Position numbers and translations under genes: made by a program. The notes beneath the pieces were generated by a model. It saw nothing but the letters and a program-made list of their open reading frames with translations, was not told where the DNA came from and did no database searches. Shown piece after piece: positions 15,251-61,718 of a DNA stretch of 64,000 bases; the first letter of the stretch is position 1; every line of letters starts with the position of its first letter. Source of the DNA: an uncultured Clostridia bacterium (GTDB lineage: Bacteria > Bacillota > Clostridia > Christensenellales > UBA1242); NCBI GenBank assembly GCA_944383315.1, contig CALWPB010000001.1, positions 29,197-93,196 of the forward strand, given 5' to 3'.

Positions 15251-15324
15251 AGGGGAGTGGCTTAATGGTAGAGTAGTGGTCTCCAAAACCATTGGTCAGA
15301 GTTCGATCCTCTGCTCCCCTGCCA
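15251..15324 (+). tRNA. trnW: tRNA-Trp (anticodon CCA), CCA end encoded
   Basis: Acceptor stem AGGGGAG/CTCCCCT. Anticodon stem GTGGT/ACCAT with loop CTCCAAA. T-arm GTTCGATCC. Discriminator G followed by CCA. Confidence 0.9.
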
Positions 15325-21444: not shown

Positions 21445-21471
21445 AAACTTTCTCCCTTTTAATTCTACTTT

Positions 21472-21500
21472 ATTCTATATCAAAGTATAAAATTTGTCAA
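21472..21500 (-). promoter_or_regulatory. Sigma-A promoter of the PadR-like gene
   Basis: On the minus strand: TTGACA (21500-21495), 17-nt spacer, TAGAAT (21477-21472). Confidence 0.55.
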
Positions 21501-21507
21501 TTATTTT

Positions 21508-21574
21508 GTAGTATTATGCATTGCATAACACACTAAATATAGTACTATTCACAATATTACGCAATGCATAGCAC
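21508..21574. repeat. Inverted-repeat element (copy A) with a central ATAGTACTAT palindrome; candidate operator
   Basis: tatgcattgc (21515-21524) pairs with gcaatgcata (21561-21570). Perfect palindrome atagtactat at 21539-21548. Clearly related to the element at 44454-44516. Confidence 0.6.
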
Positions 21575-21671
21575 GGTGTTTTTTTACGAATCAGGTATTT
21601 TTAATTTATTTAATTGTTTTAAAATTAAATTTGTGATATATTGATTATACAAATTAAAGGAACAAGTAGGT

Positions 21672-22343: not shown

Positions 22344-22542
22344 ATTAAGCAGAATAAAATGTAATGAAAACTTGTTCATAATAAAAATTAAAAAGTTATT
22401 TTGCATTAAGCTTAAACATTACACAATAAAAATTATATACAGTTTGTTATAAAAGTCTCTAAATGCTATGCATTATTTGATACAATAAGCTAATTTATAG
22501 AAATTTGATTTAATAGGGGATATTTTGTTTAAAATGTCCGTA

Positions 22543-22576
22543 AACTATGCGTAAAATACAAGTTTTACGCATAGTT
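22543..22576. repeat. Perfect 14-bp inverted repeat (hairpin) within the long ORF-free gap
   Basis: aactatgcgtaaaa (22543-22556), loop tacaag, ttttacgcatagtt (22563-22576). A weaker GC hairpin and T-runs follow at 22578-22620. Confidence 0.7.
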
Positions 22577-23039
22577 AGGGCTAAAAATTGGGGTTTTGCC
22601 CGATTTTTTGCGTTTTTTTTATGAATTCTAGTCTTAAATGCTCTCTAAAATCACTTTGTTTATTATAATACAATTTAAAAACTTATTAATTTAATTGCAT
22701 ACGATTATTTAATTTAATTTTTAATAATGTTGTTATTTGTTGTTATTTAAAGTTTGCATCAAATTTCATAAACTTTGTTTCTAACACTTGATTTAAAATG
22801 ATTTTAGACAAGAGATTTTTATTTTTAATGAATACTTGGTCATTGAAATTTTAGATTAATTTTAAAATGAGTTTACACAGAGTTGATTTTTGTTTGCTGT
22901 CAAAAATTTTATAACAAATGCTAAAAACAGTTTTTAGACAACGTACATTAAAGCTTTCTATGTGTTAATCATATAATTACAGAGTGTTTCTAGTAAATTT
23001 ATTTAAATAGGATTTTACGCATACTTTGGTCAAAATTGT

Positions 23040-23068
23040 TTTACAATCGATTTTAATTTTGTTATAAT
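23040..23068 (+). promoter_or_regulatory. Sigma-A promoter (extended -10) of the recombinase gene
   Basis: TTTACA (23040-23045), 17-nt spacer ending in TGt, TATAAT (23063-23068). Confidence 0.6.
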
Positions 23069-23097
23069 ATATTTAAATGAGTTTTTGGAGGTTTTCT

Positions 23098-24144
23098 ATG
23101 TCAGAAAATTATTATGTACAGCGTAATGATAACAATACTACTCGTATACGAGAACTTAAACAAGACCTTCCCTATTTTTGCAGTGAATTTTTTGTCGGTG
23201 TCGAGAATCAAACTACACCATTAACACGTTTAAATTATGCTTATGATTTAAGAATATTTTTCCATTATTTATGTTCCCAGCTACCCCAATTTAAAGGCCG
23301 CACTCCAAAACAAATATCATTAATGGATTTAAATTTAATTGATGCAACACAAATAGAAAATTTCCTTGATTATCTATCTGTTTATGAATTTAATGGTAAA
23401 ACTTATCACAACAATGAGAAAGCAAAATCACGTAAATTATCGACATTACGGTCTTTTTTTGGTTATTTTTTCAAAAAGGAAAAGATTGATAGAAACGTGA
23501 CAGAAAAAGTAGATTTGCCTAAACTCCACGAAAAAAATATTGTTCGACTTGAAGTAAATGAAATGGTGGATTTATTGGATATGGCTGAAACGGGTTATGC
23601 CCTATCCCCTACCCAACAAGCTTTTCATAGGCACACTGAATCGCGCGATTTTGCGATATTAACGCTACTTTTGGGCACTGGAATACGTGTTAGTGAATGT
23701 GTTGGACTTGATGTTGATGATATAGATTTTAATATAAACGGATTTAAAGTAATTAGAAAAGGTGGAGCTCAAGTTGTACTGTACTTTTCTGATGAAGTCG
23801 CTACTGCTTTGAAGAAATATCTTGAAGATAGAGCTCGTATTCCAGATTTGGACCCAAACGAACGTGCATTGTTTTTGTCATTACAAAAACGTCGCATTTC
23901 TACAAGAGCTGTACAAAATTTAGTTAAAAAATACAGTCAGTTAGTTACCCCTCTTAAAAATATAAGTCCTCACAAACTGCGTAGCACATACGGTACTAAT
24001 TTATATAGAGAAACCCAAGATATTTATGTAGTAGCAGATGTTTTAGGACATAAAGATATTAATACAACAAAAAAACACTACGCGGCTATGAGTGAAGATA
24101 TTCGCAGAGAGGCTGCTAATAAAGTCAAATTGCGTCAGGAATAA
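23098..24144 (+). CDS. Tyrosine recombinase, XerC/XerD-like
   Basis: N-terminal SAM-like core-binding domain. Catalytic domain with R (GTGIRVSE), HKLRST, LGHKDINTTKKHY (the final Y is the nucleophile). Start at the ATG after GGAGG. Confidence 0.8.
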   Translation: MSENYYVQRNDNNTTRIRELKQDLPYFCSEFFVGVENQTTPLTRLNYAYDLRIFFHYLCSQLPQFKGRTPKQISLMDLNLIDATQIENFLDYLSVYEFNGKTYHNNEKAKSRKLSTLRSFFGYFFKKEKIDRNVTEKVDLPKLHEKNIVRLEVNEMVDLLDMAETGYALSPTQQAFHRHTESRDFAILTLLLGTGIRVSECVGLDVDDIDFNINGFKVIRKGGAQVVLYFSDEVATALKKYLEDRARIPDLDPNERALFLSLQKRRISTRAVQNLVKKYSQLVTPLKNISPHKLRSTYGTNLYRETQDIYVVADVLGHKDINTTKKHYAAMSEDIRREAANKVKLRQE

Positions 24145-24163
24145 AAAATTTTATACTGATTTA

Positions 24164-24176
24164 AGAACAAATGTTT
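24164..24176. promoter_or_regulatory. LexA (SOS) box upstream of lexA (autoregulation)
   Basis: AGAACAAATGTTT, identical to the recA box, about 58 nt upstream of the lexA ATG. Confidence 0.7.
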
Positions 24177-24233
24177 GACTTTTAACATAAAATATGATAA
24201 AATGATGAAAAACATAAGGAGAAAATCAGTAAA

Positions 24234-24863
24234 ATGCAAAAAAGAATTTATAATAAAACTGAGCAATTATATGAGTTTATAAAAAAGTACAAATCTAAAA
24301 ATGGATTTCCTCCTTCTGTACGTGAAATGTGTGCTGCATTAAATATTAGCTCAACATCAACTATTACATATTATTTGAATTATTTGGAAGAACAAGGTAA
24401 AATTCGCAGAGGTGCATACAAAAACCGCGCTATAGAAATTTTAACACCAAATGAGCCAGATTCTCAACAAAGTTTGGAAATTATCAAAAGCTATTCCCCT
24501 ATCCCAGTTTTAGGACAAATTACAGCAGGACAGCCAATTTTGGCAACCGAAAATTATGAAGATTTGTACTATTTGCCTGCTAATTTGTTTAAGGGTAATG
24601 GACTATTTATCCTTAATGTAGTTGGTGATAGTATGATAAATGCAGGTATTTTCAACGGCGATAAAGTTGTAATTCGCAAACAAGAAACCGCAGAAAACGG
24701 CGAAATAGTAGCAGCGTTGATAGATGATAGCGCCACAATTAAGCGTTTTTATAAAGAAGACGGTCATTACAGATTACAGCCTGAAAATCCTACTATGGAA
24801 CCTATGTATTTTGATGAAGTTTCTATTATAGGTAAAGTAATTGGACTTATTAGAAATATGTGA
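24234..24863 (+). CDS. lexA: LexA repressor
   Basis: N-terminal wHTH (GFPPSVREMC). Cleavage-site region GQITAGQP (A-G). S24 peptidase motifs VVGDSM and ATIKRF. Confidence 0.95.
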   Translation: MQKRIYNKTEQLYEFIKKYKSKNGFPPSVREMCAALNISSTSTITYYLNYLEEQGKIRRGAYKNRAIEILTPNEPDSQQSLEIIKSYSPIPVLGQITAGQPILATENYEDLYYLPANLFKGNGLFILNVVGDSMINAGIFNGDKVVIRKQETAENGEIVAALIDDSATIKRFYKEDGHYRLQPENPTMEPMYFDEVSIIGKVIGLIRNM

Positions 24864-24903
24864 TTTTTGTTGGGTAACCAGCAATAAAACGCAATATAGT
24901 TAC

Positions 24904-39596: not shown

Positions 39597-39840
39597 AAAA
39601 AAACTTCTCCCTTTATTTAGGACGAAGTTTTCTCCGCGGTACCACCTAAATTCTCCTATGTGTTAGGAGCGCTTAATTTGATTTTAACGTAAATCAAAAC
39701 GCCTTTACCTAATATTATTTCAGCAAAAGTGCTAAAAAGTGAATTCGCCAAAACCATTGATTTGGGCTTCTCAGCTACTACCCATTCTCTGTAAATATAA
39801 TTTTGGCTACTAGTCTTTCTCAATGCATCTCTATTAAGTT
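39597..39840 (-). promoter_or_regulatory. T-box riboswitch leader (Phe) controlling pheST, including the terminator/antiterminator
   Basis: On the minus strand, the conserved T-box sequence AATTTAGGTGGTACCGCGG (39652-39634). Terminator stem AAAACTTC/GAAGTTTT plus U-run (39632-39597). Candidate specifier GAA-UUC-A with UUC at 39743-39741. Confidence 0.85.
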
Positions 39841-42533: not shown

Positions 42534-42659
42534 TTTTCATCTCCATAAATATGAATTTTGACATTTTTTGAAAAAACAAACTAAAAATTTAAAATTTTAT
42601 AAATAATTTATTTCTTTTTTAGCAAACTAACATAGAAAATCTAAAATGAGGTGAATTTT

Positions 42660-44414
42660 ATGAAAAAAATACTAGCTCTTTCTTTAACTTTGGCGCTTGC
42701 TTCTACTTTTGCAGGGGTAAGCAGTTTACAAATGAATGAACAAAATGCGCTACGTGCGGATATTGATGAATTGCATCTTATAGCAACTACAGCAAATCCT
42801 GATAGCGAACAATTACAATTAAATGATAAATTTGTTATAAACAAAGATAATGATTACAAAATTCTTCCACGCAATGTTGACACTTATCGCGATAACTCAA
42901 ATAATGATCAACAGAACGCGAACAATGCTCAAAATACACCAACGACTACACCAAACACAACAACTAACAATCAAAACAACAATACAACAAACATTGAGCA
43001 AAAAAATACGACCAATAATACTACCAATACACAGGCAAGACAAAATACAACAAGTTTCAACAATCAAAATAATTTGACAAAAACAAATAATCAAACAGGT
43101 AATTTAACAAATAACCAAACAAATAATATAAACAATGGCTTTAATTCTAACAATAATTTAAATAATGCCAATAACACAACTAATAACAATGGCACAATGA
43201 AAGATACAAACAACTTAAACAATACTGCAACTAACAACACTAATCAAAATAATCTATCAAACAATACACAAGGAACTTCTCCGTATGGAATCGGTAATGC
43301 GAACTCTGGCGTGTTACCCAACCAAGGCAATGGCAATAAAGTAGCAAACAACGCTAGCACTGGCAATCTTGATAGTATGGTTAGAACGAACAACATTGAC
43401 ACATATAAAAACAACACCAACACAAACATTGATGGTAATGTTTATAACAACAATGGTGCTATGTTAAATAATGGGATAAATAACGCAAATGGTATTAACA
43501 ACAATACAACTACAAACCCCAACAATCTAATAAATAATGGAAACAACTCAACAGTTGCTCAAAATGGTACTAACACAACACAAAATAATTTAAACAATGG
43601 TAATAACAATACAAATCAACAAAACAGCGCTACACAAAACCCTACAAACAACAATCAAACTAATAATACAAATAAAACAACTAACAATACTCAAACCGTA
43701 AATGATATTCAAAATGAAATAACAGAACTCAATGACAGGCTCGCAGGGTTAAATGAAACTCTTAATACAAATATGGTTACCGCTCGCGAAAATATGGACA
43801 AAGTTATAAACAACACAGTACAACTTGAAGAAAATCAAATTAAATTAATCAATGGTTACTCACACGTACTTCAATGTATGAACAAAAAACTTGCAGAAAG
43901 CCACTTTGATTTAATTCACAGTGCTGGCAGGCTTGCCCTTGTTCAAAGTCTTCAAGGTAATGATGCTGACGTAAACCCAATTTATTTAGAAATGAGAGCG
44001 ACACTATTGAGTAGAGAAATTTACTATAACTGTGCAAACGAAGCACTTGAATCATTAAATAAAATTTTTGAGCAAAATACTAATTCAACTCAATCTAACC
44101 AAAATGGGCAACAGAATGTAAACAACGAATTACAAACTCAGACAAAAAATACTCAGTCAACAGTTATGAATAATAACACAGCAAATACACAAAACAATAA
44201 CCAAAATCAAGATAAAATTTCTTCCCTTAGAACACCTATTCAAAGCGATGCTCGTCAGCAAGACATAAATCTTACAAGACCTAATAAAGATGAAATCAAA
44301 AAACAATCATTAAATCAACCTATCGCAAAAATGCCAACTCACAAATCACAAGATTTGAAAAAAGGTATTGAATTTAAATCTCCATCAACCAACAGTACTT
44401 TCTCGTTTGAATAA
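42660..44414 (+). CDS. Secreted Asn/Thr/Gln-rich low-complexity protein with a C-terminal coiled-coil-like region
   Basis: Signal peptide MKKILALSLTLALASTFAGVSS after GAGGTG. About 300 aa are dominated by N, T and Q, then a more normal region (IQNEITELNDRLAGLNETL...). No homology that I recognise. Confidence 0.6.
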   Translation: MKKILALSLTLALASTFAGVSSLQMNEQNALRADIDELHLIATTANPDSEQLQLNDKFVINKDNDYKILPRNVDTYRDNSNNDQQNANNAQNTPTTTPNTTTNNQNNNTTNIEQKNTTNNTTNTQARQNTTSFNNQNNLTKTNNQTGNLTNNQTNNINNGFNSNNNLNNANNTTNNNGTMKDTNNLNNTATNNTNQNNLSNNTQGTSPYGIGNANSGVLPNQGNGNKVANNASTGNLDSMVRTNNIDTYKNNTNTNIDGNVYNNNGAMLNNGINNANGINNNTTTNPNNLINNGNNSTVAQNGTNTTQNNLNNGNNNTNQQNSATQNPTNNNQTNNTNKTTNNTQTVNDIQNEITELNDRLAGLNETLNTNMVTARENMDKVINNTVQLEENQIKLINGYSHVLQCMNKKLAESHFDLIHSAGRLALVQSLQGNDADVNPIYLEMRATLLSREIYYNCANEALESLNKIFEQNTNSTQSNQNGQQNVNNELQTQTKNTQSTVMNNNTANTQNNNQNQDKISSLRTPIQSDARQQDINLTRPNKDEIKKQSLNQPIAKMPTHKSQDLKKGIEFKSPSTNSTFSFE

Positions 44415-44574: not shown

Positions 44575-45732
44575 TTATATACTCCAATTGTTTATTACAT
44601 CGTGAAGTGTGTCTTTATAGCTTTTAGCTTCAATATCATTTGATGCTATAATACTTATTTCTTTTATTACTTTATTGTTGTCAGTCAGTACAATTTTACC
44701 TACTACTTCATTTGTAGATATTGGTGCCGTTAATTTATTATATTCGTAATTTATAGCAATGTTACTATTCTCACCTTTTTTAGTTAGCACAAAGTAATCT
44801 TCTTGTGGCTTAAATACTGCTTCATTTTTTGCTTTGTTGATAACGGGAATGTTGTCTAGTGTTTGGGTTGAATCAATAAGTTTGACACTGTCATAATTTG
44901 CAAATCCCCAATTAAACATTTCTGTACAAGCGGCAAACCTGCTTTTGCTATCTTTTGCTCCAAGCACTACAGAAATTAATCTCATATCCCCTTTCTTTGC
45001 CGTAGCACTCATACAATATCCTGCTTCATTTGTTGAGCCAGTTTTACCAGCATCACAATTTGAATAACTGCGAAGCAATTTATTTGTATTTGCCATCTCG
45101 GTAATTCTTCCAGAAGGATGTTGAAAATCTTCCATCCAAATTTTACTTATTTCAAAGTATAAAGGATATTTTACAACTTCACGCATTACTAATGCTATAT
45201 CATTAGCACACGAATAAGCATTTGCGCTTGGTAGCCCTGTACAATTTGTGTAATTGGTATTTTGGGCTCCTAATTCTTTTACTCTTTCGTTCATAAGCGC
45301 AACAAAACCATCTTCACTACCGCCCAATCTTTCTGCTATCATAACACTAGCATCATTTGCCGAACTTATAATAATTGCGTGCAGCAAGTTTTCTACAGTA
45401 TAGTCAGAATTTGCATCAATAAAAACTTGTGAGCCGCCCATTCCGGCAGCATTCTCACTTGCTGTCAATACTTCGTCTAATTGCAATTCATCATTATCAA
45501 TAGCTTCAAAAGTAAGCAACAATGTTGTAAGTTTTGTTACACTCGCTATAGGCAAATGTTCCGTTGAATTTGACTCACTTAAAATTTGTCCTGTCCCATA
45601 GTCCATAAGAACACTTGCCTTATAATTTTGGTCATCTAACGCGCTCACTCTGCTAAAAGGCATTAGTAATGGAACTATCAACGCAACAACTAATAGCCCC
45701 GCCATTAGCATAAAATTCTTTTTTACAATCAT
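44575..45732 (-). CDS. D-alanyl-D-alanine carboxypeptidase (S11, DacB/DacF-like)
   Basis: Signal/TM N-terminus. SxxK (ASVTKL), SxN (SSAND), KTG (KTGST), and a C-terminal PBP5-type beta domain. Confidence 0.88.
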   Translation of the reverse strand: MIVKKNFMLMAGLLVVALIVPLLMPFSRVSALDDQNYKASVLMDYGTGQILSESNSTEHLPIASVTKLTTLLLTFEAIDNDELQLDEVLTASENAAGMGGSQVFIDANSDYTVENLLHAIIISSANDASVMIAERLGGSEDGFVALMNERVKELGAQNTNYTNCTGLPSANAYSCANDIALVMREVVKYPLYFEISKIWMEDFQHPSGRITEMANTNKLLRSYSNCDAGKTGSTNEAGYCMSATAKKGDMRLISVVLGAKDSKSRFAACTEMFNWGFANYDSVKLIDSTQTLDNIPVINKAKNEAVFKPQEDYFVLTKKGENSNIAINYEYNKLTAPISTNEVVGKIVLTDNNKVIKEISIIASNDIEAKSYKDTLHDVINNWSI

Positions 45733-45804: not shown

Positions 45805-46467
45805 TTAAGAAACTATGATTGCTGTAGCGAGCCACGGAATAAGCAACGATTCATATAAAATAGCAATGAAAAGTATTGTTCCTAATATATAAAAATATCT
45901 TTTATTCTCACATAAGAATGATTTACTAAAAATAGAACCCCCATAAATGCGCGAATTCATATTATAGCACATACAAACCGCACTAAAACTAATTAGACAA
46001 GCGAGTATTACAAAATGGCTTGGTATTATTATGAATATCACATTCAAAATGCCGCCCACATTAAAGAGAACTATTAGTAGCGCAGATGTCGCACCCACCA
46101 CAAACCCACGGTAAACCAGAAATAGAACATTTAGGAAACACATAAATGGACGAATATTTGCAATCATTATTATTAATAATATGGCGATTAGACTAAACAG
46201 TCTTGCAAAAAATACCCCAAAGACTGAAATGTTCTTATTAATAAAACTGATAAATATCGAATCTGGTATATTGTCAATTGTCGCATCAGGTGCAATAGTG
46301 AAGCCTGTAATTAATCCTATTATAACACCCACAAGCGCAGCAATACCAAGTGAAATATACCACCATTTGTAATTTGATATATGCTCTGCTAATTCATAGC
46401 GCGCGGCGGAGCAATTCCTATAAAATGCATAAAATTTAGACATACATAATAGTATGCCTAAATTCAA
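45805..46467 (-). CDS. spoIIM: Stage II sporulation protein M-like membrane protein
   Basis: About 5-TM protein. YRGFVVGAT, IIPSHFVILA and LYESLLIP parallel the B. subtilis SpoIIM segments KGIVVGFT, LPQNLLLIP and LFEAYLSP. The start is uncertain (TTG 46467 or ATG 46443). Confidence 0.55.
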   Translation of the reverse strand: MNLGILLCMSKFYAFYRNCSAARYELAEHISNYKWWYISLGIAALVGVIIGLITGFTIAPDATIDNIPDSIFISFINKNISVFGVFFARLFSLIAILLIIMIANIRPFMCFLNVLFLVYRGFVVGATSALLIVLFNVGGILNVIFIIIPSHFVILACLISFSAVCMCYNMNSRIYGGSIFSKSFLCENKRYFYILGTILFIAILYESLLIPWLATAIIVS

Positions 46468-46528
46468 AATTATATGAATTTGTCATTTCAAAAATATTTT
46501 CAAAAATATTTCAAAAATCGACAAAATT

Positions 46529-47299
46529 TTAAAATTTTAATGACGCTTTGAACTTTTCTTCTCTGTTGTAATTATATAATTTATTTGCTAAATAATAGAT
46601 GAATTCCTTGGCCGTTGGGCATCTTGAAAAGTCGTCAAAAGAAATACCTGTTGCTTGCCTAATATTGTTTTTGCCCCTTCTTTTCCAAGCGGTATCAATC
46701 GACACTTTCATACACCTTGCGACACTTGCTGCTGTGGTATTGTAAGCAAAAGCAATCTTGTTGTAGATTGATTTACTAAATACACTGGGCTTGCATTTAT
46801 TAATCAAAATTTCGTTTACACAATCTTTTATAAATTGCGTACCATTAGTGCTTACATTAAAACCTAAATCAACTAGCACCTTGTAAATTTGGTCATTGAC
46901 GTTAGTCGTAAAAGGCTCCATAAACTCTTCATTTCGCTGAATATTTTGCAATTTTACCGTTATTTTACTAAAAAAATCACCAATTTCATCATAAGTTAAG
47001 TAATTATAGTTACTTGGCAAGTTTAATGAAAAATCAGGTTTTATATTGCCGATTACAAAAATCATTGGTACTGAAAACGATAAATCATCTTTGAAAATTT
47101 GTAAATATTTTTTATTTTTTTGATACTCCTGTAAATTAAAAATCAACATATCAGGCTTTGTGGTCAACACTCTCCCTATCAGTCTTCCAAAATCTATTTC
47201 ATAATCAAGTCCTATATTATTTTGCGCACAAACCCCTTTTAATTCATAGTTACAATTTGCATTATCCTCTACATAATAAATAGCCATATATTTAGTCAT
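46529..47299 (-). CDS. spo0A: Spo0A-family sporulation regulator with a degenerate (pseudo-)receiver domain
   Basis: The C-terminal Spo0A_C domain is clear (IAFAYNTTAASVARCMKVSIDTAWKRRG...PTAKEFIYYLANKL). Canonical position downstream of spoIVB. AAGGAG lies 9 nt before the ATG. Confidence 0.8.
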   Translation of the reverse strand: MTKYMAIYYVEDNANCNYELKGVCAQNNIGLDYEIDFGRLIGRVLTTKPDMLIFNLQEYQKNKKYLQIFKDDLSFSVPMIFVIGNIKPDFSLNLPSNYNYLTYDEIGDFFSKITVKLQNIQRNEEFMEPFTTNVNDQIYKVLVDLGFNVSTNGTQFIKDCVNEILINKCKPSVFSKSIYNKIAFAYNTTAASVARCMKVSIDTAWKRRGKNNIRQATGISFDDFSRCPTAKEFIYYLANKLYNYNREEKFKASLKF

Positions 47300-47415
47300 T
47301 TAGAAGTTCTCCTTATTTTTTATTAACATTATTGTAACAAATGAATTTTGTTTTGTAAAACGATTTTTGTATATTTTTGTAAATTTTTAAATATTTTTGA
47401 AAACATATTAAAAAA

Positions 47416-47441
47416 TATGCTGAAATTATTGATTCAGCATA
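47416..47441 (-). terminator. Terminator hairpin at the end of spoIVB
   Basis: Stem tatgctgaa/ttcagcata overlaps the stop codon, with a T-run on the minus strand afterwards. Confidence 0.6.
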
Positions 47442-48577
47442 TTATCTATATATATTGCAAAGCCTTTTGTGGCATCATTTATAAACACGTGTGTTACAGC
47501 CCCAATTAACTTTCCGTCTTGTACAATAGGGCTACCACTCATACCTTGAACGATACCGCCAGTTGTTGCTATCAAATTGTTATCAGTTACTTTAAATACC
47601 ATATTTTTTGGGCTCTGCGCACTTTGATAATTAGTCTTAATAATTTCTATATCATATGCTCGAATATGCTTGCCGTCAATGCTACTGTAAATTTGAGCCT
47701 TACCTGGATGAGCAGTCATTCTGCCACCAACTTCTATTAATTGTTTGTCTTTAAGTATGTTGCTTTCTAAATTCATATTACCAAACATTCCACTTTCACA
47801 ATTCTTGTCTACGGTTCCCAAATCGGTTTTTGAACGGACAAAAACTCCGCGTAACTCACCCGGTGTGCCGCGAACCGCTTTTTTTACCCCAAGTACAGAA
47901 CATTCGTGTAATTTGCCTTCTCCTACATCAAGTAGCGCACGGGTGTTTTGTTCCAAAATCGGATGCCCCAAAGCCCCAAAACGTCCAGTTTCAGGCTCAA
48001 CAAAAGTCAAAGTTCCTATACCGCTCATACTTTCCTTTGCCCAAACACCTAGTTTATATTTGTGTGTAAGCACATCATAAGCAGGTTTTACCTTTGTTTC
48101 AATATTTTTACCATTTCTTACCAGTTTTACTGTTATAAATTTATCCGCATTTTCGTTGACTGTTTCGGTAAGTTTGGAAATACTATCTATTTCAGTTCCG
48201 TTTATGTATTTAATAATGTCGCCAGCCTCAATTTCGCTAGTATTCGCATTTTCATTCTTGGCTACTACAAGTATCCCATCACCTTGATAAGAAAAACCTA
48301 ACGTATTACCACCTAAATAAACCTTTTTCCCTGTTTCTGCACTTACGGAATGTATTTTTAATGCATTAAAAAGCAAAAAGTCCACTTCTTGCGTGCTTTC
48401 ATTATATTTTGTCGTTACCAAATCACCAAAATTATTGTAATTTTCGTCTTGATTAACATAAACTTCTTCATCAAAACTCATAATATCGCGAAAAGGTACA
48501 GTCCAGCATAATACAGCAAATGATACACACAAAAATAAAGACATAAAGAAAAAAATTTTATCTATTCGCATTTTCAT
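47426..48577 (-). CDS. spoIVB: SpoIVB signalling serine peptidase (S55)
   Basis: N-terminal TM and PDZ domain. S55 motifs GIGTLTFVEP..GRFGALGHPI and GMSGSPIVQDGKLIGAVTHVF. Confidence 0.93.
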   Translation of the reverse strand: MKMRIDKIFFFMSLFLCVSFAVLCWTVPFRDIMSFDEEVYVNQDENYNNFGDLVTTKYNESTQEVDFLLFNALKIHSVSAETGKKVYLGGNTLGFSYQGDGILVVAKNENANTSEIEAGDIIKYINGTEIDSISKLTETVNENADKFITVKLVRNGKNIETKVKPAYDVLTHKYKLGVWAKESMSGIGTLTFVEPETGRFGALGHPILEQNTRALLDVGEGKLHECSVLGVKKAVRGTPGELRGVFVRSKTDLGTVDKNCESGMFGNMNLESNILKDKQLIEVGGRMTAHPGKAQIYSSIDGKHIRAYDIEIIKTNYQSAQSPKNMVFKVTDNNLIATTGGIVQGMSGSPIVQDGKLIGAVTHVFINDATKGFAIYIDNMLNQ

Positions 48578-48641: not shown

Positions 48642-50327
48642 TTATTTCAAGCTACAGAGATATTTTAAAGCATTATTTTTGAGTTCTTGAGCGTGTGCAA
48701 GACCCAATTTTGAATTATTATCACCACCAGCAAGACGCGCAATTTCGCCGAGTTGCCCATCTGTATCTAATTTGACAAGAGTACTATTCGTTTTACCCGA
48801 ATTTATTTGTTTTGTAATTCTAAAATGTGTGTCCGCAAAACTTGCAATAGTGGCTAAATGCGTAACTGTGATAATTTGCGCATAGCGTGCTAGCATTGCC
48901 ATTTTTTGCCCAACAGCAAGACTAACTACCCCGCTGATACCGTTGTCAATTTCGTCAAATATCATAGTATCCACTGACTTTACACCGCCCATAACGATTT
49001 TGAAAGCCAGCATAAAACGCGACATTTCACCGCCAGAAATAACTTTTACTAACGGCTTTACGGGTTCACCTACATTTGCAGAAAACATAAACTCAACCGC
49101 GTCAGCACCATTTGCTTGCGGAGTAATAGTAGTAAATGCTACTTCAAATGTCGAATTCTTCATACCAAGTTCAGCAAGTTGCTCTAAAATAGCAGCGCTC
49201 AATTTTTTCGCGCCGTCTTGCCTAAATTCCGTAATTTTTGCGCATATTTCTGTAATTGCGCTTTCAATTTGACGCAAAGAAACAGAATACTCATCTAATA
49301 AATGTTCGGTATCCGCTAATTCATTAAGCCTGTTTCGACTCTGCTCTAAATATGCCAGCATTTCGCTAATATCCGAGCCGTATTTCCTTTTAAACGACTT
49401 GATAAGGTCAAGACGTGAGTCAACCGCATTGAAATCATACTCGTTAAACTCACATTCATCTAGTTTTTGCTCTAATGTGTCCGATATATCCGCCGCTTCA
49501 ATTTGCAAACTGTCTATACGTTCTGCAACCGCTCCAAAATCGCTGTCAAAATCTTCAATACCATTTATTAGCCTTTTTGATGTATATGCATTATCACAAA
49601 TACTATTTGGCATTTCACTAAACAACTCACGTACAGCGCGCAAAGTTTCAGCAATTTTTTGTGCATTTTCCATTTTCGCCTTTTTGGTCGCTAGTTCCTC
49701 TTCTTCGCCTTCTCGCAAGTCCGCTTTTTCTAATTCAGCAACTTGATATTCTAACATTTCGCGCTCACGTTCGCGTGAAAACTCATCACCGCCCAACCCT
49801 TTAATTTTATTGAGAATATCACGTTTTTGAGCGAGAAGTTCATTGAGTTTACTCTTCGCATTTTCAATAGTATTTCCTAAAAATTTATCTAAAAATTCAA
49901 TATGTGTCGCATTATTTAGCAGCGCTTGATGTTCGTGTTGCCCATAAATATCTACTAAATGCCCAGTAAGTTTACGCAACATTGATAATGTAACAGTACA
50001 ACCATTTACTTTGATATCCCCGCGCCCATCACTTGAAATTTTGCGCGTAATAATCAAAGTGTCGTCAGGCTCCAGCCCAAGCGCCTGCATTTCATCAAAA
50101 ACGGCAGTATTATCCTTAATATCAAAAACTATTTCAATTCGCGCCGTATCACACCCCGTGCGCACACTTGCCTTGTCCGCTCTACCGCCGAGCGCAAGAT
50201 TAATAGCCGAAATTAATACAGACTTACCCGCACCAGTTTCACCTGTAATTACATTCAATCCACTACCAAAATCAACTTTCATATTTTCAATTAATGCAAA
50301 ATCACTAATTGCAATACTTTTAATCAT
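48642..50327 (-). CDS. recN: DNA repair protein RecN
   Basis: SMC-like protein: Walker A GETGAGKS, coiled-coil middle, C-terminal GGEMSR signature and FDEIDNGISG. Confidence 0.95.
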   Translation of the reverse strand: MIKSIAISDFALIENMKVDFGSGLNVITGETGAGKSVLISAINLALGGRADKASVRTGCDTARIEIVFDIKDNTAVFDEMQALGLEPDDTLIITRKISSDGRGDIKVNGCTVTLSMLRKLTGHLVDIYGQHEHQALLNNATHIEFLDKFLGNTIENAKSKLNELLAQKRDILNKIKGLGGDEFSREREREMLEYQVAELEKADLREGEEEELATKKAKMENAQKIAETLRAVRELFSEMPNSICDNAYTSKRLINGIEDFDSDFGAVAERIDSLQIEAADISDTLEQKLDECEFNEYDFNAVDSRLDLIKSFKRKYGSDISEMLAYLEQSRNRLNELADTEHLLDEYSVSLRQIESAITEICAKITEFRQDGAKKLSAAILEQLAELGMKNSTFEVAFTTITPQANGADAVEFMFSANVGEPVKPLVKVISGGEMSRFMLAFKIVMGGVKSVDTMIFDEIDNGISGVVSLAVGQKMAMLARYAQIITVTHLATIASFADTHFRITKQINSGKTNSTLVKLDTDGQLGEIARLAGGDNNSKLGLAHAQELKNNALKYLCSLK

Positions 50328-50538: not shown

Positions 50539-52814
50539 TTAAACTAAATCATCATAATTGTTGTCAACATCATCATTAGTTGCCTCATCTGATTCAATTT
50601 CACGGAATACCGCTTTAATTATCTTGCCGTTTACTTGCTCTTTGGTAAGATTAATACTCAAAGCAGTGCCGAATGTTTCGGTTTCGTCATTAGCATTTAC
50701 CCAACCTACAAACTCATAGCCAGTATATGCCACAGCAATAAAAGTTACAGTGTCAGTGTCCGCACCGTTGGCTATATCGTTACCAACCATACGCACTTCA
50801 CCGCCCGTACTTGCTGTTGCTACTGTACCCACTATACCTACTCCACCACTTGTTGGCGGTACTTGATATACAGGTTTTACGGTTGAAAGATTAAAGTTTA
50901 TATCAATGCTATCGTATACGTCTTCTAATTCAATGACAAAAACATTTGACGTGTCTTTTGCTGTGTAGCGAACTTGTAGAGCACCACCCGCGCCAAAGAT
51001 TTCCGCACGGTAGTATGTTGGGAATATCTCTGCACCGTCTATGGTGATTGAATGTACATACTGACTTGTAGCAGGGCGCATAATTACCAACTGCACACCT
51101 GATTCATTTTTGTACATTTCGATTGTCCCGCTACCACCCGAATAATCGGCTGTAATACTAGCGGTTGTCCCCACATAATGCCCGATTGTAACATTGTGTT
51201 GACCGTGTGGCAAATTCGTGAGTTCGATTACAACATTATTTTCATAAATATTGTGCGCGTAGTCTAATGCTCCGCTTGGAATCATTACTCTACCGCTACT
51301 ATTATTCCCGAACAACCTTACCGTTACCCCGTCTATGGTAAACTGAATATTTTGATTTTGTGAGAATGTCGCCACAATTTCGGCGGTTGTATCAAAATAT
51401 GTGTCGGGAGTGATACAATTATCTTGAATTACAAGGGTTGAATTGTTTGAAGAAAGATTAAATAACGATGTTGCGTTTCCTACTATTGTGCTATTTTGCG
51501 TCAAATTCGTAAGTATTACAATAACTTGATTATTGTTGCGATAACACTTGTATTGAGCGCCCGAAACGGTCGAGAAACTGCCTGGGGCAGTTTCCGCAAT
51601 AGTTACAGAACTCCCATTTATTGTTATTGAATTTATGTAATATTTGTTGTTTGCGGTGTACGTAAATGCGTGTTGCGCACCAGAATTTTTGACGTAAAAA
51701 GCGGAGTTAGTGTCTAATTGCGCCCTATCGGTCGCGGCGCTCGCCAAGCTCGCGGAGATAGTATAGCCCGCTTCGCTGGCTAACTGATTTAAAGAGAGAT
51801 GAGCGGCAGGACGGACGCCGCCCGCGCACGAAAACCCGAGAAGAAAAAAAAACGCGCCCGAGGAGAACCCCCGAGCAGACCAGCCGACTACAAAGAGCCG
51901 GAGCGCAGCCAGCAATATTGACTTGTACTTTTACCATCTAATGCAGTACTACTTGTATCCTTCCTATCATTAGCGGATGTTATCCCCCATAATCCACGGT
52001 CGTTATATGCTCCCGTCTGGTCTGGGGTATTAAATATTTCTACATGACTCGGTAACCAAAACTTATCACTATAAACACTACTGTCCCAACTCCAACCATT
52101 TGGATTTGCGTTTGCTTTACCACTGCCGCTATTAGCGTTTGTTCGCATGCCGTTTGTTATAGACCAATAACTTGTACTGCTATAATAAGCATTTTGTTGT
52201 GTGGCTTGCCAAGTGGCGCCCGCTTCACTAGGAGATTTTATTATAGCATTTAAGGTAGTAAACTTACCTGCTAATTTGCTATAAATATTCTTTGTAACTT
52301 CACGTATTAAAGAATTTGAATAGTTACCTGTTTTAGAGTAATTATTTGAACTTGTTTTCCAGCCACTATTTGAACTTGTTCCGTTATTAAAGTATTCACT
52401 TGTGTAACTATTAGCCATCCAAATTGTTAAATAGCCATTACGTAAATATGTAGCCTGCCAAATGATTGGCTTACTTGCATTTATAGTACCATTTGGATCC
52501 ACATAATATCCCATTTGGAATACAAATGAGCCGCTGTTTCCTGTACGACTTGCAATTTGTGAAGATGTCAATGTAGTTGAACTTGTAATGCTAGTATATT
52601 GCAACTTTGTTAAAAATTTACTAACATTTTCCGCATTTAAAGAGCCGTCTGTATTAAATAAATTACCTATAGTAGCATCGGCTGATTGTGTAGTTGCATT
52701 TGCGTTGTTTAAGTGGTATACAATCAAGTATGCCCCCGTGCCGACAAGCGCGCCAAACATAAACACTACCGCTACTATAATACTTACTAGCCTTGCTTTT
52801 GCGCTTAACTGCAT
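50539..52814 (-). pseudogene. Cell-surface protein gene split by a -1 frame change (true frameshift, assembly error or hypervariable site): TM anchor + DUF6273-like/lectin-like domain + beta-rich region + Listeria-Bacteroides-type repeat
   Basis: ORF 51888..52814 has an N-terminal TM and ends YCWLRSGS-stop. ORF 50539..51915 has only a TTG with no SD and begins in the -1 frame with ...GGVRPAAHLSL, which completes the WLRS...GVRPA domain end. C-terminal GYEFVGW repeat motif. Confidence 0.6.
51801..51915 (-). other. Adenine-free (coding strand), about 64% GC patch with an internal T9 homopolymer
   Basis: Hand count on the + strand: 1 T (51889), about 40 A and about 74 G+C in 115 nt. A9 run at 51844-51852. 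The GC-rich island extends down to about 51716. Confidence 0.9.
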
Positions 52815-54375: not shown

Positions 54376-55932
54376 TTAAAAATCTAACAAATTAATTATA
54401 TCCTGTTTGTTTACAGCAGCCAAGAATAGATACAATCTAGGGCCTTTGCTCTTGCCAAGTAACAAGTTATATACAACTTCAAAAAATCTTTTTTGTCTTG
54501 CCTTGTCTTGCTCGCCGTTTAATTTTGGAATTTCGTAAAGTAATGCTTGCATTTCTTCAATTGTGTAATCTTTCGCTTTAATGCTGTCTTTTAATGTGCA
54601 TATCCAGCCTTTTTCTTCGTCATTCAAGGTAGCATAATATTCTGTATTTTTGCTTTCCAATAGATTTGAAATTGATTCTGGCGAATAATTTTTTAGCCAA
54701 TAACTAATTTTATTAAATCTCTCTTCAATTTGTTCACGTGTGCAAGTATCGCCAATTTTGTTGAGTAACGCAACCAGCATATCAAGGTCAAAGTTGACAA
54801 TAGGCGCAAATGCTGCGATATTTTGGGCACTTACAGGGCAGTTGACAAAGTTAGGTCTGCAAGAAAGTGCCATTTCCATAATGCGATTTACTACTTCGTC
54901 CCCTTCGCCTGCTTTGTACTGTGCGTACATTCTATCAAATTCGTGATAAACACGCAAAACTTCTTCATCTAGGGAAATATCGAACTGTTTTTCAGGCAAG
55001 AAACGAGTATACAGCCACAAAACGATTTCAGGGCTATATACTTTGAGCATTTTCTGGGGAGTCATAACATTACCCTTACTACTACTCATCTTGCCGCTAG
55101 TACCCTTGATACCAACGAATTCGTAACCGCGATATACAGGAGCGCGCCCGCCATAGATTGCTGACACCATTTTAGTAGCAACTTGCGCGCTACCGCCTTC
55201 TGTACTGTGGTCCTTACCACCTGGTTCAAAGTTTACACCCTCAAAGGTCCAACGCATAGGCCAATCAACTTTCCACATTAATTTTGCGTTGTGTTGAGTG
55301 CGCAAGTCGATTGAACCTTTGTGTCCGCACTTACATTCATAATCAAGAACTGCCCCGTTTTCGTGGTCGGCTGTAATGTGTGTTGTGTCCTTTCCGCAGT
55401 GGTCGCAATAGATTTGTACAGGATAGAAAGCATCTCTGTCTGCATCGTTTGCTTCCTGCGTCTTAAAACTCATAAGCACGTCATAAACTTGTTTGCGTTT
55501 TTCTACTGCTTCAATCATTTTATCCGCATACAAACCACTTGTATAGCGGTCTGCTTGAAATAAGTGTTCGACTTCGACACCGAGTTCTGCCAATGCGTCA
55601 ATAAATGGTTGCTGGAAATGTTTTGCCCAAGTACCGTGGCACCCAAATGGGTCTGGGATTTTGTCTAATGGCATACCAACATATTTATTTAAATCTTGGT
55701 CCAAATCTGCTGGGACTTTACGCAGTCTATCATAATTGTCCCAACTAAATATAAAGCGGACTTTTTTGCCTCTATCGCGGAGTGCTTTTACTACAAACCA
55801 AGTAGTAACCACCTCGCGTAAATTACCCATATGCACTTCACCACTTGGGCTAATACCGCTCGCGCAAGTATAAACTGTGGCACCGGGATAGGTATTAATT
55901 ACCTGTTCTGCAATTTCATCTGCCCAATACAT
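54376..55932 (-). CDS. lysK: Class I lysine--tRNA ligase
   Basis: YWADEIAEQV start, GISPSGEVHMGNLREV (HIGH-like), RFIFSWDNYDR, Cys-cluster insertion CDHCGKD...CKCGH, FEPGGKDH, KMSSSKG (KMSKS). Confidence 0.92.
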   Translation of the reverse strand: MYWADEIAEQVINTYPGATVYTCASGISPSGEVHMGNLREVVTTWFVVKALRDRGKKVRFIFSWDNYDRLRKVPADLDQDLNKYVGMPLDKIPDPFGCHGTWAKHFQQPFIDALAELGVEVEHLFQADRYTSGLYADKMIEAVEKRKQVYDVLMSFKTQEANDADRDAFYPVQIYCDHCGKDTTHITADHENGAVLDYECKCGHKGSIDLRTQHNAKLMWKVDWPMRWTFEGVNFEPGGKDHSTEGGSAQVATKMVSAIYGGRAPVYRGYEFVGIKGTSGKMSSSKGNVMTPQKMLKVYSPEIVLWLYTRFLPEKQFDISLDEEVLRVYHEFDRMYAQYKAGEGDEVVNRIMEMALSCRPNFVNCPVSAQNIAAFAPIVNFDLDMLVALLNKIGDTCTREQIEERFNKISYWLKNYSPESISNLLESKNTEYYATLNDEEKGWICTLKDSIKAKDYTIEEMQALLYEIPKLNGEQDKARQKRFFEVVYNLLLGKSKGPRLYLFLAAVNKQDIINLLDF

Positions 55933-56425: not shown

Positions 56426-58084
56426 ATGCCACAGAAAGAAGCAAGCAAGAAAAATGCTGCTGCACGCAGATTGCCTTACAATTTTGAAGCAGAGCAAGCA
56501 GTACTTGGGGCTGTATTAATCAGCCAAGAAGCACCATCGGTAATACTTACAGAACTTAGGAAAAATGATTTCTACACGCGTGAGCACCAGATTATTTTTG
56601 ACACAATGCAGACGCTTTTTGTCAAGAAAAATCATACATATTTTGACCACATCATTTTGACAAGTGAACTTGAAAGTCAGGGTTTACTTGAAACGGTTGG
56701 CGGTGTGAGTTATCTCATTACCCTAACCAATGTGCTACCTAGTGCAACAAACTATCAATATTATGTTGATATTGTAAAACGTGATTCCACCCTACGCCAA
56801 CTCATTGCTGCTGGTGGCGAAATAATTGAGAATGCGTACGCAAGTGATGACCGCGAGTCTGCTCTAGGTTTTGCTGAAAGTAAAATTTATGCGATTTCGC
56901 AGACTGCTGACCATTCGGCTTTGGAGCATATTAAAGGCAGTCTTGAAAAAGTCATAGAAGAATTTGAGTTATGTTTCCAAAACCCTGACGCAAAGCGCGG
57001 AGTTTTCACGGGTTACCCTGGACTTGACCACTGCACTAATGGTTTTCAAAAAGGCGAACTTATCATTCTTGCGGCACGTCCTGCGTTTGGTAAGTCTTCC
57101 CTTGCGCTTAACTTTGTGCAAAATATGGCGATTAAATACAATAAAACTTGCGCTATATTCAACCTTGAAATGTCAAAGGAAGATTTGGCGCGCAGAATGG
57201 CTGTAAGTATTGCAAAAGAGCATTGCCGTACTATTAGTATGGAAAAAGTCAAGCGCGGCGACCTAAATGAAGACGAGCAACGCAAATTTCGTCAAGCAAT
57301 CAATCAACTTGCTGATACAAAAATTTATCTTGATGAAAGTGGTTATAACACCCCTGCTGAAATTAAGTCCAAATGTATGCGACTTAAAAATGACCCGTCC
57401 TGCGGGCTTGATTTTGTAATGATTGACTACCTACAACTTATGAGCAATGGCGGACGTAGTGAAGGACGTCAACAAGAAGTTAGTGATATTTCGAGAAATC
57501 TAAAACTTATGGCAAAGGAACTTGGGGTGCCTGTACTTGCCCTTTCACAACTTTCGCGTGGTGTCGAACAACGTACGTTTGGCGACCACAAACCGCAATT
57601 AAGCGACTTGCGTGAATCTGGTGCGATTGAGCAAGATGCCGATATTGTAATGTTTATTCACCGACCTAGCAATTATGCTGACGTCAACAAAGATGGAAGT
57701 CTTGACCCGACTCAAGTATTTTTGATTGTGGCAAAACATCGTAATGGTCCTTTGGCTGAAATTCCGCTTATTTGGGACGGCGCAACCACGACATTCCGCA
57801 GTACTGAAAAAGACGCAAACATTGCAAGTCTTGAAGCGACTGCTCCGCCACCAATTACACAAGAAAATCGCGCAGCATTTGAAAAAGTATCAAAAGAACT
57901 TGAGGCTGTTGGCAATGTTGATGATGGTATTTTTAATGCTCCACCTATCGATGAGATTCCGCCAGAAATTCCACCTGAATTACCTGACGATATACCACCT
58001 GCTGAACCACCTTTTGAGCCGACAGAGCCTGTGAATAACAATGCCCCAGCAGATGCAGATGACGATTTCGACCCTATCTTTTAA
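56426..58084 (+). CDS. dnaB: Replicative DNA helicase DnaB with a Pro/Glu/Asp-rich C-terminal tail
   Basis: LPYNFEAEQAVLGAVL start, Walker A ARPAFGKSS, IDYLQLM, SQLSR, ESGAIEQDAD. About 90 extra C-terminal residues (PPEIPPELPDDIPPAEPP). Confidence 0.95.
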   Translation: MPQKEASKKNAAARRLPYNFEAEQAVLGAVLISQEAPSVILTELRKNDFYTREHQIIFDTMQTLFVKKNHTYFDHIILTSELESQGLLETVGGVSYLITLTNVLPSATNYQYYVDIVKRDSTLRQLIAAGGEIIENAYASDDRESALGFAESKIYAISQTADHSALEHIKGSLEKVIEEFELCFQNPDAKRGVFTGYPGLDHCTNGFQKGELIILAARPAFGKSSLALNFVQNMAIKYNKTCAIFNLEMSKEDLARRMAVSIAKEHCRTISMEKVKRGDLNEDEQRKFRQAINQLADTKIYLDESGYNTPAEIKSKCMRLKNDPSCGLDFVMIDYLQLMSNGGRSEGRQQEVSDISRNLKLMAKELGVPVLALSQLSRGVEQRTFGDHKPQLSDLRESGAIEQDADIVMFIHRPSNYADVNKDGSLDPTQVFLIVAKHRNGPLAEIPLIWDGATTTFRSTEKDANIASLEATAPPPITQENRAAFEKVSKELEAVGNVDDGIFNAPPIDEIPPEIPPELPDDIPPAEPPFEPTEPVNNNAPADADDDFDPIF

Positions 58085-60171: not shown

Positions 60172-60888
60172 CTAAATTAGTTTTGCAATATCTTTTTTCA
60201 TTTTATGAAGAATTTTCTTTTCAATTCGGCTAATATAACTTTGAGAAATATTTAACATATCAGCGACTTGCTTTTGTGTGCGCTCCTGTTCTCCATTCAA
60301 ACCAAAACGCATCGAAACTATTTGCTTTTCTCTAGCATCCAACTTATCTAGCACCTTATAGATAACATCTTTCTCCATAGATGTTTCCATATTTTTGAAA
60401 ACTTCATCTGCATCAATACCTATAACATCACCGAGCAACAATTCATTCCCGTCCGAATCAAACGAAAGCGGCGAATCAAGCGATGTTTCTTTCTTCTGTT
60501 TGCTAACTTTACGCAAATGCATAAGTATTTCATTTTCTATACAACGAGAAGCATACGTAGCAAGTTTAATTTTCTTTGAAGAATTAAAAGTATTAACCGC
60601 TTTAATAAGACCTATTGAGCCTACTGAAATTAAGTCTTCCAAGTCTACACCTGTATTTTCAAATTTTTTTGAAATATACACAACCAAACGCAAATTGCGC
60701 TCTATTAGTTCTGCCTTAGCATTCTCGTCCCCGTTTTCAAGACGCATAAGACATTCTTGTTCTTCGTCAATGCTCATAGGACTTGGCAATGCTTCATTAC
60801 TACATAAAAACAAAAGCATTTGCTCTTTTGATACATTTTCTTCAAGCCCTATAGCCTTTAAAAATATTTTCTTTAAAAAACCTAACAT
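60172..60888 (-). CDS. sigE: RNA polymerase sporulation sigma factor SigE (pro-sigma-E)
   Basis: Pro-sequence followed by ...NEALPSPMS and sigma-70 regions 2-4. Overlaps the end of spoIIGA. Confidence 0.9.
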   Translation of the reverse strand: MLGFLKKIFLKAIGLEENVSKEQMLLFLCSNEALPSPMSIDEEQECLMRLENGDENAKAELIERNLRLVVYISKKFENTGVDLEDLISVGSIGLIKAVNTFNSSKKIKLATYASRCIENEILMHLRKVSKQKKETSLDSPLSFDSDGNELLLGDVIGIDADEVFKNMETSMEKDVIYKVLDKLDAREKQIVSMRFGLNGEQERTQKQVADMLNISQSYISRIEKKILHKMKKDIAKLI

Positions 60889-61718
60889 TTTACCGCCTCC
60901 AACAAATCATTTCCAATAATTGCCTGACAATCTCCGCATTTAACACGACCATTTGCAACACCTACACTTGCGTTTTGTTGTTTCCCATCTATAATCACAT
61001 TAGCATCAAAAACGCACATTTTATAATTACCCCCAAGACTATTTACTGTTATAGTATCAATATTTGATAACCCTAAATTATCCGTTTTACCAAACATAAG
61101 TGCCATTCGCTCGTGAGTACTCAACCAAAAAGCAAGTTCTTTTTCTGGTAACACAATGACAGGCTTCCCAAATCGGTCTTTCAAAGTATTTCCCGTATCA
61201 ATAAAACTTTTTATTTTTTTAACTTTATTTTTAATCTCCAAATTAATTACAACCGAATTCCCCCAAGTTTTCTTGTTTTTAAGTCCCCTAAGCAATCTAA
61301 AACACAAAGTCCCAAACATAAATACGCATACTAAAAGTGTCCCCAAAGGCAACGATGATACGTATCCTAGATACATAGAATCATAAATTTGTATTCCCAT
61401 AAAAGTAAAAATAGCAATCAATGCTCCGCCGAACGCAAAAGTGTAGAGAGAAAAAATTAAAAAACGAGATAGTATTTTCTTAAAGGAAAAACAAGCTATA
61501 AAAGACATTACAAATGCTACACTAAATTTAAGTAATATAGCAAAAACACCTTCAAAAGTAATAAGCGGAGAAACTACAGCAAACCCAGCCCCAAATGCGC
61601 TTGCAAGCATTATACCCCACTTGCTAACGGGCTGATGCAACGTTTTGACAGCAAGAGTCATAAGCAAAGCATCAATTAAAAAATTGTCAAGCAACACATA
61701 TTCAATAACAATTTCCAT
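60882..61718 (-). CDS. spoIIGA: Sigma-E processing aspartic peptidase SpoIIGA
   Basis: Five N-terminal TMs and a C-terminal domain with IDTGNTLKD (the DTG catalytic motif). Confidence 0.9.
   Translation of the reverse strand: MEIVIEYVLLDNFLIDALLMTLAVKTLHQPVSKWGIMLASAFGAGFAVVSPLITFEGVFAILLKFSVAFVMSFIACFSFKKILSRFLIFSLYTFAFGGALIAIFTFMGIQIYDSMYLGYVSSLPLGTLLVCVFMFGTLCFRLLRGLKNKKTWGNSVVINLEIKNKVKKIKSFIDTGNTLKDRFGKPVIVLPEKELAFWLSTHERMALMFGKTDNLGLSNIDTITVNSLGGNYKMCVFDANVIIDGKQQNASVGVANGRVKCGDCQAIIGNDLLEAVKC

Follow-up and report, generated by a model that had tools for sequence, protein, structure and literature searches.

A Spo0A orthologue with a predicted aspartate-less pseudo-receiver in uncultured gut Clostridia

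According to a 2024 review, all endospore formers initiate sporulation through Spo0A phosphorylated on a conserved aspartate (PMC11210211), and work on the evolution of the initiation pathway treats the step from kinase or phosphorelay to Spo0A as constant (PMC6136694). We examined a Spo0A-like gene in a 64 kb stretch of DNA from an uncultured Clostridia bacterium (contig CALWPB010000001.1; 64,000 nucleotides, hereafter the window). Its product is very probably a Spo0A orthologue with an aspartate-less pseudo-receiver, as judged from alignments and a structure model, and would be controlled by something other than His-Asp phosphotransfer.

Regulators with an aspartate-less receiver (ALR) include ChxR, HP1043/HsrA, RitR and CmrT of C. 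difficile. RitR has Asn at the acceptor position, as does the protein studied here, and is controlled through a cysteine; we know of no ALR regulator reported to control endospore formation. In Streptomyces, sporulation genes are regulated by WhiI, an atypical orphan regulator with a degenerate phosphorylation pocket and an output domain of the NarL/FixJ type, which forms a heterodimer with BldM. Among the laboratory alleles of Spo0A, sad67 is a receiver deletion that acts independently of phosphorylation. As long as it is unphosphorylated, the receiver of Spo0A inhibits the effector domain, and the DNA-binding domain in isolation needs no phosphorylation to work (PMC3485338). A survey of ALR regulators mentions Spo0A only as a mutational example (PMC4395418). 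Our literature searches, which miss many subscription papers, found no description of an aspartate-less Spo0A.

The receiver half and its active-site positions

The open reading frame (ORF) of the Spo0A-like gene starts at the first start codon after the upstream stop, so that no longer N-terminus is possible, and it is preceded by a GGAG ribosome-binding site. A 99 %-identical protein from other assemblies carries the same residues at the receiver positions. In the window protein, Pfam found Spo0A_C alone and no match to the receiver family PF00072 even at E<=10, and the NCBIfam Spo0A equivalog TIGR02875 reached 48.6 bits against a cutoff of 200, over the C-terminal part only. A plain phmmer search against PDB matched the Spo0A DNA-binding domain (1lq1, 1fc3; E ~1e-7) and no solved Spo0A receiver. 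With a profile of nine close relatives, PDB receivers (RstA, BfmR and others) were seen weakly, in a gapless alignment over residues 4-56 (53 residues, E ~0.05) that placed 'PDMLIFNL' on 'PDLVVLDV'. We also compared alignments by hhalign. The N-domain alone (29 sequences) matched the receivers of 18 canonical Spo0A proteins plus that of B. subtilis with a probability of 88.6 % (E 3e-7, 118 columns), and the full-length comparison with the alignment of the 18 canonical proteins gave a probability of 99.8 % (E 5e-30) and was collinear over 248 columns. The B. subtilis reference sequence used in hhalign is 100 % identical to PDB 9phz.

All three alignments set E11/D12 on D10/D11 of B. subtilis and N55 on the phospho-acceptor D56. 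The two hhalign comparisons, which are the ones that reach as far as the switch positions, set G84 on T86 and T102 on K108, where all 18 canonical controls have Lys. Three of the five catalytic receiver residues are replaced (D by N55, T/S by G84 and K by T102), and the beta3-alpha3 loop falls 2 residues short of the canonical Spo0A length. Asn is unable to form an acyl-phosphate, and the D56N form of B. subtilis Spo0A is non-phosphorylatable. The original prediction had aligned the N-terminus by eye and had read from it an acidic pair kept as E-D, an Asn at the phospho-acceptor and no evident conserved Thr/Ser or Lys; the alignments bore out each of these readings, placing no Asp at the acceptor and finding neither the Thr nor the Lys, and measured against PF00072 the domain was even less canonical than had been claimed.

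The AlphaFold2 (AF2) model, built from the 29-sequence family alignment, had a mean predicted local distance difference test score (pLDDT) of 85.9. Its N-domain comprises beta1 (4-9), alpha1, beta2, alpha2, beta3 (51-55), alpha3, beta4 (79-84) and beta5 (98-102); a loop (85-97) occupies the place of alpha4, and a long alpha5 runs into the linker. In the family, the motif that replaces alpha4 is GNIxPDFxLNLPxNYxY. Searching PDB with Foldseek, we found that the N-domain resembled the receiver (REC) domains of KdpE, PhoP and BfmR (template-modelling score, TM, ~0.6; probability 1.00) as well as the KaiA pseudo-receiver, and that the C-domain resembled Spo0A-C (1lq1/1fc3; TM 0.75-0.86). In the model, E11/D12, N55, G84 and T102 lie at the C-terminal ends of beta1, beta3, beta4 and beta5, respectively, which is the topology of a receiver pocket, and the residues that had been called retained or substituted are thereby predicted at its active-site positions. 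Judged by these alignments and the model, the N-terminal half is a pseudo-receiver, homologous to REC domains and devoid of three of the five catalytic residues and of alpha4.

Orthology, spread and conservation of the family

We scanned contigs with family-specific peptide patterns, which would not catch a canonical copy, and obtained four family loci (L001-L004). The window has the gene order recN-spoIVB-spo0A-like-SpoIIM-like membrane protein-dacB/F-like carboxypeptidase, and the block from spoIVB to dac was present in all four of the species-representative ruminant-gut metagenome-assembled genomes (MAGs) that hold a relative (L001-L004). Moreover, recN was seen in L002 and L004, and spoVAC-AD-AE together with yunB in L001, L002 and L004. 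P0014, a relative of 36 % identity, lies in the order nusB-xseA-xseB-...-argR-recN-spoIVB-X, which we take to be the B. subtilis gene order, and P0066, a still more distant relative, in the order argR-recN-spoIVB-X. The loci L005-L007 have the order nusB-xseAB-argR-recN-spoIVB-X. In total, spoIVB was directly upstream in 7/7 related loci and recN was seen in 5/7 (L002, L004-L007).

The window also contains spoIIGA-sigE-sigG, ymxH, spoIVB, spoVAC/AD/AE, yunB and a spoIIIE/ftsK-type translocase amid housekeeping genes; these sporulation genes are intact and 70-85 % conserved in relatives. The synteny of spoIVB and spo0A that the original prediction had pointed out in the window recurs in the seven related loci and at P0066, and all the sporulation genes that it had listed as kept (sigE, sigG, spoIIGA, spoIVB and spoVA, the last as spoVAC/AD/AE) were recovered in the window. 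We detected no histidine kinase, Spo0F, Spo0B or other response regulator within the 64 kb, no linked kinase gene in any locus examined, and no canonical spo0A copy in the window or in any related locus fetched. On its position and its full-length collinear homology, we identify the window protein as the Spo0A orthologue of its lineage.

Among 1.84 billion representative proteins, a profile search found 1670 hits at E<=1e-3, 25 of them at E<=1e-30; beneath these followed a continuum of roughly 250-amino-acid proteins with full-length matches. In an alignment of 120 proteins from this search, the beta3-alpha3 loop was 2 residues shorter than the canonical one in 72, and the complete catalytic set was found in none of these (0/72). 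PF00072 was matched by 0/29 close relatives and by 0/35 more distant short-loop proteins, against 18/18 canonical Spo0A controls from the same hit list; Spo0A_C was matched by all the 82 tested proteins (29 close, 35 distant and 18 canonical). By these sequence matches, the pseudo-receiver trait is a feature of a clade, common to some 64 or more representative clusters of proteins from uncultured Clostridia. In public annotation, the relatives, which come from 'Clostridia bacterium' MAGs, carry the name 'hypothetical protein' or 'Spo0A C-terminal domain-containing protein'. The sequence of the window turns up again in many metagenomes from chicken gut and manure, and a look for expression found no usable RNA run that contains the gene.

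The original prediction had also raised the question of whether relatives share the Asn at the acceptor. The position varies: the nine closest proteins have N, N, S, S, S, E, D, D and D. The members with Asp there have lost the acidic pair, and E11/D12 is not conserved either, close relatives having F-N, N-K, T-K or G-E instead. Because the acceptor position varies and the carriers of Asp are without the acidic pair, the old catalytic positions appear to be no longer under selection. The receiver half has conserved residues specific to the family (E34, F69, P78 and the invariant N97, in 29 sequences), and the length of the protein stays at ~253-269 amino acids across the 29 divergent members, with no frameshifts or truncations seen. 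With this stable length and a conserved residue set of its own, the pseudo-receiver domain itself is, to judge from the family alignment, under selection.

Identity of the Spo0A-like protein to that of the window is 48-58 % in L001, L002 and L004, where SpoIVB and Dac reach 64-71 %, SpoVAC/AD/AE 80-85 % and YunB 71-77 %; in L003, the Spo0A-like protein, SpoIVB and Dac are at about the same level (50-54 %). By these figures, the Spo0A-like protein ranks last or close to last in conservation within the syntenic block. Relatives with a RecA of ~89-91 % identity seem to be the ones that carry Spo0A-like proteins of only 36-51 % identity. Spo0A is normally among the best-conserved sporulation proteins.

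DNA-binding half, promoter region and neighbouring genes

The original prediction had assigned the C-terminal half to the Spo0A DNA-binding domain, and the assignment is confirmed by PF08769 (Spo0A_C; full model 1-104 at 65.4 bits, cutoff 25) and by the fold match to 1lq1/1fc3. The canonical Spo0A signature, SRVERAIRHAIEVAW, is near-invariant in the hit list; the window protein has ASVARCMKVSIDTAW, which is identical at 5/15 positions. Its recognition helix retains the Arg and the Trp but has Ala in place of the Glu that precedes the Arg. The Arg (R195) is invariant in 29 sequences, and the preceding residue is Ala in all of the closest relatives and is not acidic in most of the close clade. 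To judge from its altered recognition helix, the protein may bind a DNA site other than the classical 0A box. We also found four cysteines (C160, C169, C196 and C227) that are co-conserved in the close clade and essentially absent from canonical proteins, their B. subtilis equivalents being A179, E188, A215 and K246, respectively. Together they may provide a metal, Fe-S or thiol redox site, and a switch of this kind would be an attractive addition to the mechanism proposed below.

A terminator-like hairpin closes spoIVB, so the Spo0A-like gene would have a promoter of its own; the promoter-like site is written TTTACA-17-TGTTACAAT. The stretch with the upstream repeats has hardly changed among six species whose proteins share only 36-58 % identity with that of the window. 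A similar repeat, inverted in orientation and partly conserved, is found between the Spo0A-like and the SpoIIM-like genes (46490-46530). Instead of an operator, the phased repeats may form an UP-like or bent-DNA element. We considered TTTACAAAAAT as a candidate for a new '0A box' and rejected it: there was no significant window-wide enrichment (24 matches against 16 +/- 4 expected), many of the matches resemble ordinary -35 elements, and we claim no operator. The canonical TGNCGAA box was absent from the upstream region of the Spo0A-like gene and from the interval between pgsA and spoIIGA, and those boxes that occur in the window are almost entirely within coding DNA.

Table 1. Features of the Spo0A-like gene, its product and the adjoining genes, in window coordinates.
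Feature	Position	Strand	Basis
Spo0A-like gene, 256 amino acids plus stop	46529..47299	-	ORF; full-length collinear hhalign to canonical Spo0A
Predicted pseudo-receiver domain, residues 1-102, beta1-alpha1-beta2-alpha2-beta3-alpha3-beta4-loop-beta5, without alpha4	46994..47299	-	AF2, Foldseek, hhalign
Asn55 codon AAT (att on the plus strand), phospho-acceptor position	47135..47137	-	three alignments
Residues 84-97, GNIKPDFSLNLPSN, family-conserved loop replacing alpha4	47009..47050	-	alignment of relatives, AF2
Residues 103-135, alpha5 into a long linker helix, poorly conserved, low pLDDT at 127-132	46895..46993	-	AF2, conservation
Spo0A_C DNA-binding domain, residues 138-241, recognition helix ASVARCMKVSIDTAW	46577..46888	-	PF08769; PDB 1lq1/1fc3 by sequence and fold
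Sigma-70-type promoter-like site, TTTACA, 17 nt, TG-n-TACAAT, 10/12 matches, extended -10	47331..47359	-	conserved in six species
Three phased TTT(A/T)CAAAAAT copies just upstream of -35	47363..47403	-	core nearly invariant across six species
Terminator-like hairpin closing spoIVB	47414..47443	-	DNA sequence
spoIVB	47426..48577	-	PF05580, 262 bits; TIGR02860, 336 bits (cutoff 305, passed)
recN	48642..50327	-	SMC_N/AAA_23; 56-59 % identity to syntenic recN of L002 and L004
220-amino-acid polytopic membrane protein, probably a divergent SpoIIM	45805..46467	-	TIGR02831, E 0.0014, full-length weak match; synteny
D-Ala-D-Ala carboxypeptidase (dacB/dacF-like), member of the conserved block	44575..45732	-	domain search; synteny

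The SpoIIM-like membrane protein has no Pfam match and was always downstream of the Spo0A-like gene in the loci examined. Among the other sporulation genes of the window, SpoIIGA (60882-61718, minus strand) is very divergent, with 84 bits against an equivalog cutoff of 209 and only residues 1-206 of 278 matching; the adjoining SigE and SigG are near or above their equivalog cutoffs. Between recN and serS there are two overlapping ORFs of 458 and 308 amino acids (50539-51915 and 51888-52814, both on the minus strand), neither of which has a Pfam or NCBIfam match. In relatives, argR precedes recN in their place, and the 308-amino-acid ORF has a relative of 30 % identity elsewhere in L004. On the other side of the block, beside spoVA, the window encodes a secreted-looking protein of 587 amino acids (42651-44414, plus strand) that is extremely Asn/Thr-rich, with long N/T/Q low-complexity tracts and no family match; only its C-terminal part is kept in relatives (44-51 %), at the same place.

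Further observations concern the rest of the window. The lysyl-tRNA synthetase (54376-55932, minus strand) is of the class I type (PF01921, 385 bits), which is unusual in Firmicutes, where the class II enzyme is normal. The DnaB replicative helicase (56426-58084, plus strand; 552 amino acids) has a C-terminal extension of ~90 residues, the DnaB model stopping near residue 460, and a PadR-family regulator of 518 amino acids (19888-21444, minus strand) has its PadR domain in the first ~88 residues, followed by a long C-terminal part without a match. The lowest GC content of the window (0.30) was found at 20000-24900, where a gene of the tyrosine recombinase/phage-integrase family (23077-24144) lies beside lexA (24234-24863); it could be an Xer-type recombinase or mark the edge of an island. 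Finally, a T-box leader (39615-39832, minus strand, 136 bits) lies upstream of pheS-pheT, and there is a tRNA gene at 15251-15321 (plus strand).

Proposed regulation without the phospho-acceptor and comparison with known systems

From the loss of the receiver residues, taken together with established receiver chemistry, we infer that the protein is phosphorylation-independent or differently regulated. Neither sporulation kinases nor a phosphorelay would be able to activate it by His-Asp phosphotransfer. In the scheme that we prefer, its activity would be set by the amount of protein together with a partner protein or ligand. The amount would depend on the near-consensus sigma-A-type promoter of the gene, behind the conserved phased repeats, and the point of action of the partner or ligand would be the remodelled beta4-loop-beta5 surface of the pseudo-receiver, the counterpart of the output and dimerisation face of canonical Spo0A. 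The pseudo-receiver would then be a dimerisation and regulatory module and not a phospho-switch. A bolder version, which we regard as speculative and put forward with considerable doubt, is that a radiation of uncultured gut Clostridia has uncoupled the entry into sporulation from two-component phosphotransfer and rebuilt Spo0A as a different sensor. In it, DNA binding would be gated by the four cysteines, acting as a metal, Fe-S or thiol redox site (e.g. upon oxygen exposure when the anaerobe exits the gut), and the altered helix would read a new operator.

The aspartate-less protein might instead be a paralogue or partner and not the master switch, with a canonical, phosphorylatable Spo0A encoded elsewhere and modulated by it through heterodimer formation or competition for DNA, as in the case of WhiI with BldM. 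The unusually divergent DNA-binding domain (48.6 against 200 bits for TIGR02875) would fit such a role, and the patterns of the contig scan were specific to the family and blind to a canonical copy. Nevertheless, we think this unlikely: the gene occupies the ancestral spo0A slot after spoIVB (and after recN or argR-recN, where the sequence reached that far) in every locus, the distant relative included, neither the window nor the fetched loci contained a canonical copy, and the full-length collinear homology is what divergence in place would give. Still less likely, in our estimate, is phosphorylation at a non-canonical site, be it E11/D12, the conserved acidic residue 58, or a Ser, Thr, Tyr or Cys served by another type of kinase. 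Some atypical regulators are indeed Ser/Thr-phosphorylated, the window protein has retained E11-D12, and an acidic residue followed by Tyr or Phe is common just after beta3 in the family; but E11/D12 is not conserved among relatives, the Lys and Thr that would stabilise an acyl-phosphate are absent, and no locus has a linked kinase gene.

It is also conceivable that the gene is a decaying relic, its receiver drifting neutrally in a lineage that is losing sporulation. Intact reading frames of ~253-269 amino acids in 29 divergent members, without frameshifts or truncations, make this very hard to accept, as do the family-specific conserved residues in both domains, the conserved promoter, and the intact and well-conserved sigE, sigG, spoIIGA, spoIVB, spoVA, yunB and ymxH. 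What speaks for decay is the low identity of the protein (48-58 % versus 64-85 % for spoIVB, dac, spoVA and yunB in L001, L002 and L004) and the free variation of its catalytic residues.

Several points weigh against a Spo0A that works without His-Asp phosphotransfer. The DNA covered amounts to 64 kb of this genome and ~20 kb for each relative, and a second, canonical spo0A, orphan kinases or Spo0F/Spo0B could sit outside it. Sporulation has yet to be observed in these uncultured organisms. The lineage is generally divergent, with SpoIIGA and SpoIIM, too, scoring far under their equivalog cutoffs, so that part of the divergence of the Spo0A-like protein would be background rate. The E11-D12 pair kept in the window protein would allow some binding of metal or ligand in the old pocket. 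As to the proposed control by promoter and partner, it is drawn from conservation only, and the upstream repeats resemble -35 hexamers and A-tracts, in a motif that is not significantly enriched across the window.

If a Spo0A controlled in some other manner than by His-Asp phosphotransfer is indeed what these genomes encode, it would be a natural exception among spore formers and would mean that rewiring is possible at the top of the sporulation cascade; the group probably starts sporulation another way. There would be practical consequences as well: the relatives are below the Spo0A equivalog cutoff and vaguely annotated, so that predictions of spore formation for gut MAGs that require a canonical Spo0A may misclassify these lineages. 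The protein would also be a natural counterpart to the phosphorylation-independent Spo0A mutants made in the laboratory.

Compared with canonical Spo0A (B. subtilis, G. stearothermophilus, C. difficile), the window protein is alike in its two domains, its length, its slot after recN-spoIVB and its Spo0A_C fold, with the PT..EF motif and the recognition-helix Arg and Trp retained. It differs in having no PF00072 match, in the Asn, Gly and Thr at the positions of Asp, Thr/Ser and Lys, in the missing alpha4 and in the four extra cysteines. With WhiI it has in common that it would be a developmental regulator with a degenerate pocket, whereas the output domain of WhiI is unrelated and serves the exospore development of an actinomycete. 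It shares with ALR or pseudo-receiver regulators (surveyed in PMC4395418) a receiver-like fold joined to a DNA-binding output, the lack of an acceptor Asp and a presumed independence of His-Asp phosphotransfer, but those regulators have outputs of the OmpR/PhoB or other families and include no Spo0A. In the laboratory alleles (sad67; isolated Spo0A-C, PMC3485338), an altered or removed receiver frees the DNA-binding domain from the need for phosphorylation; unlike these, which are engineered or selected mutants of a phosphorylatable protein, the window protein is natural and clade-wide and has a conserved replacement surface. Functionally, its likeness is to the ALR regulators and to the phosphorylation-independent alleles of the laboratory; by descent, it is a Spo0A.

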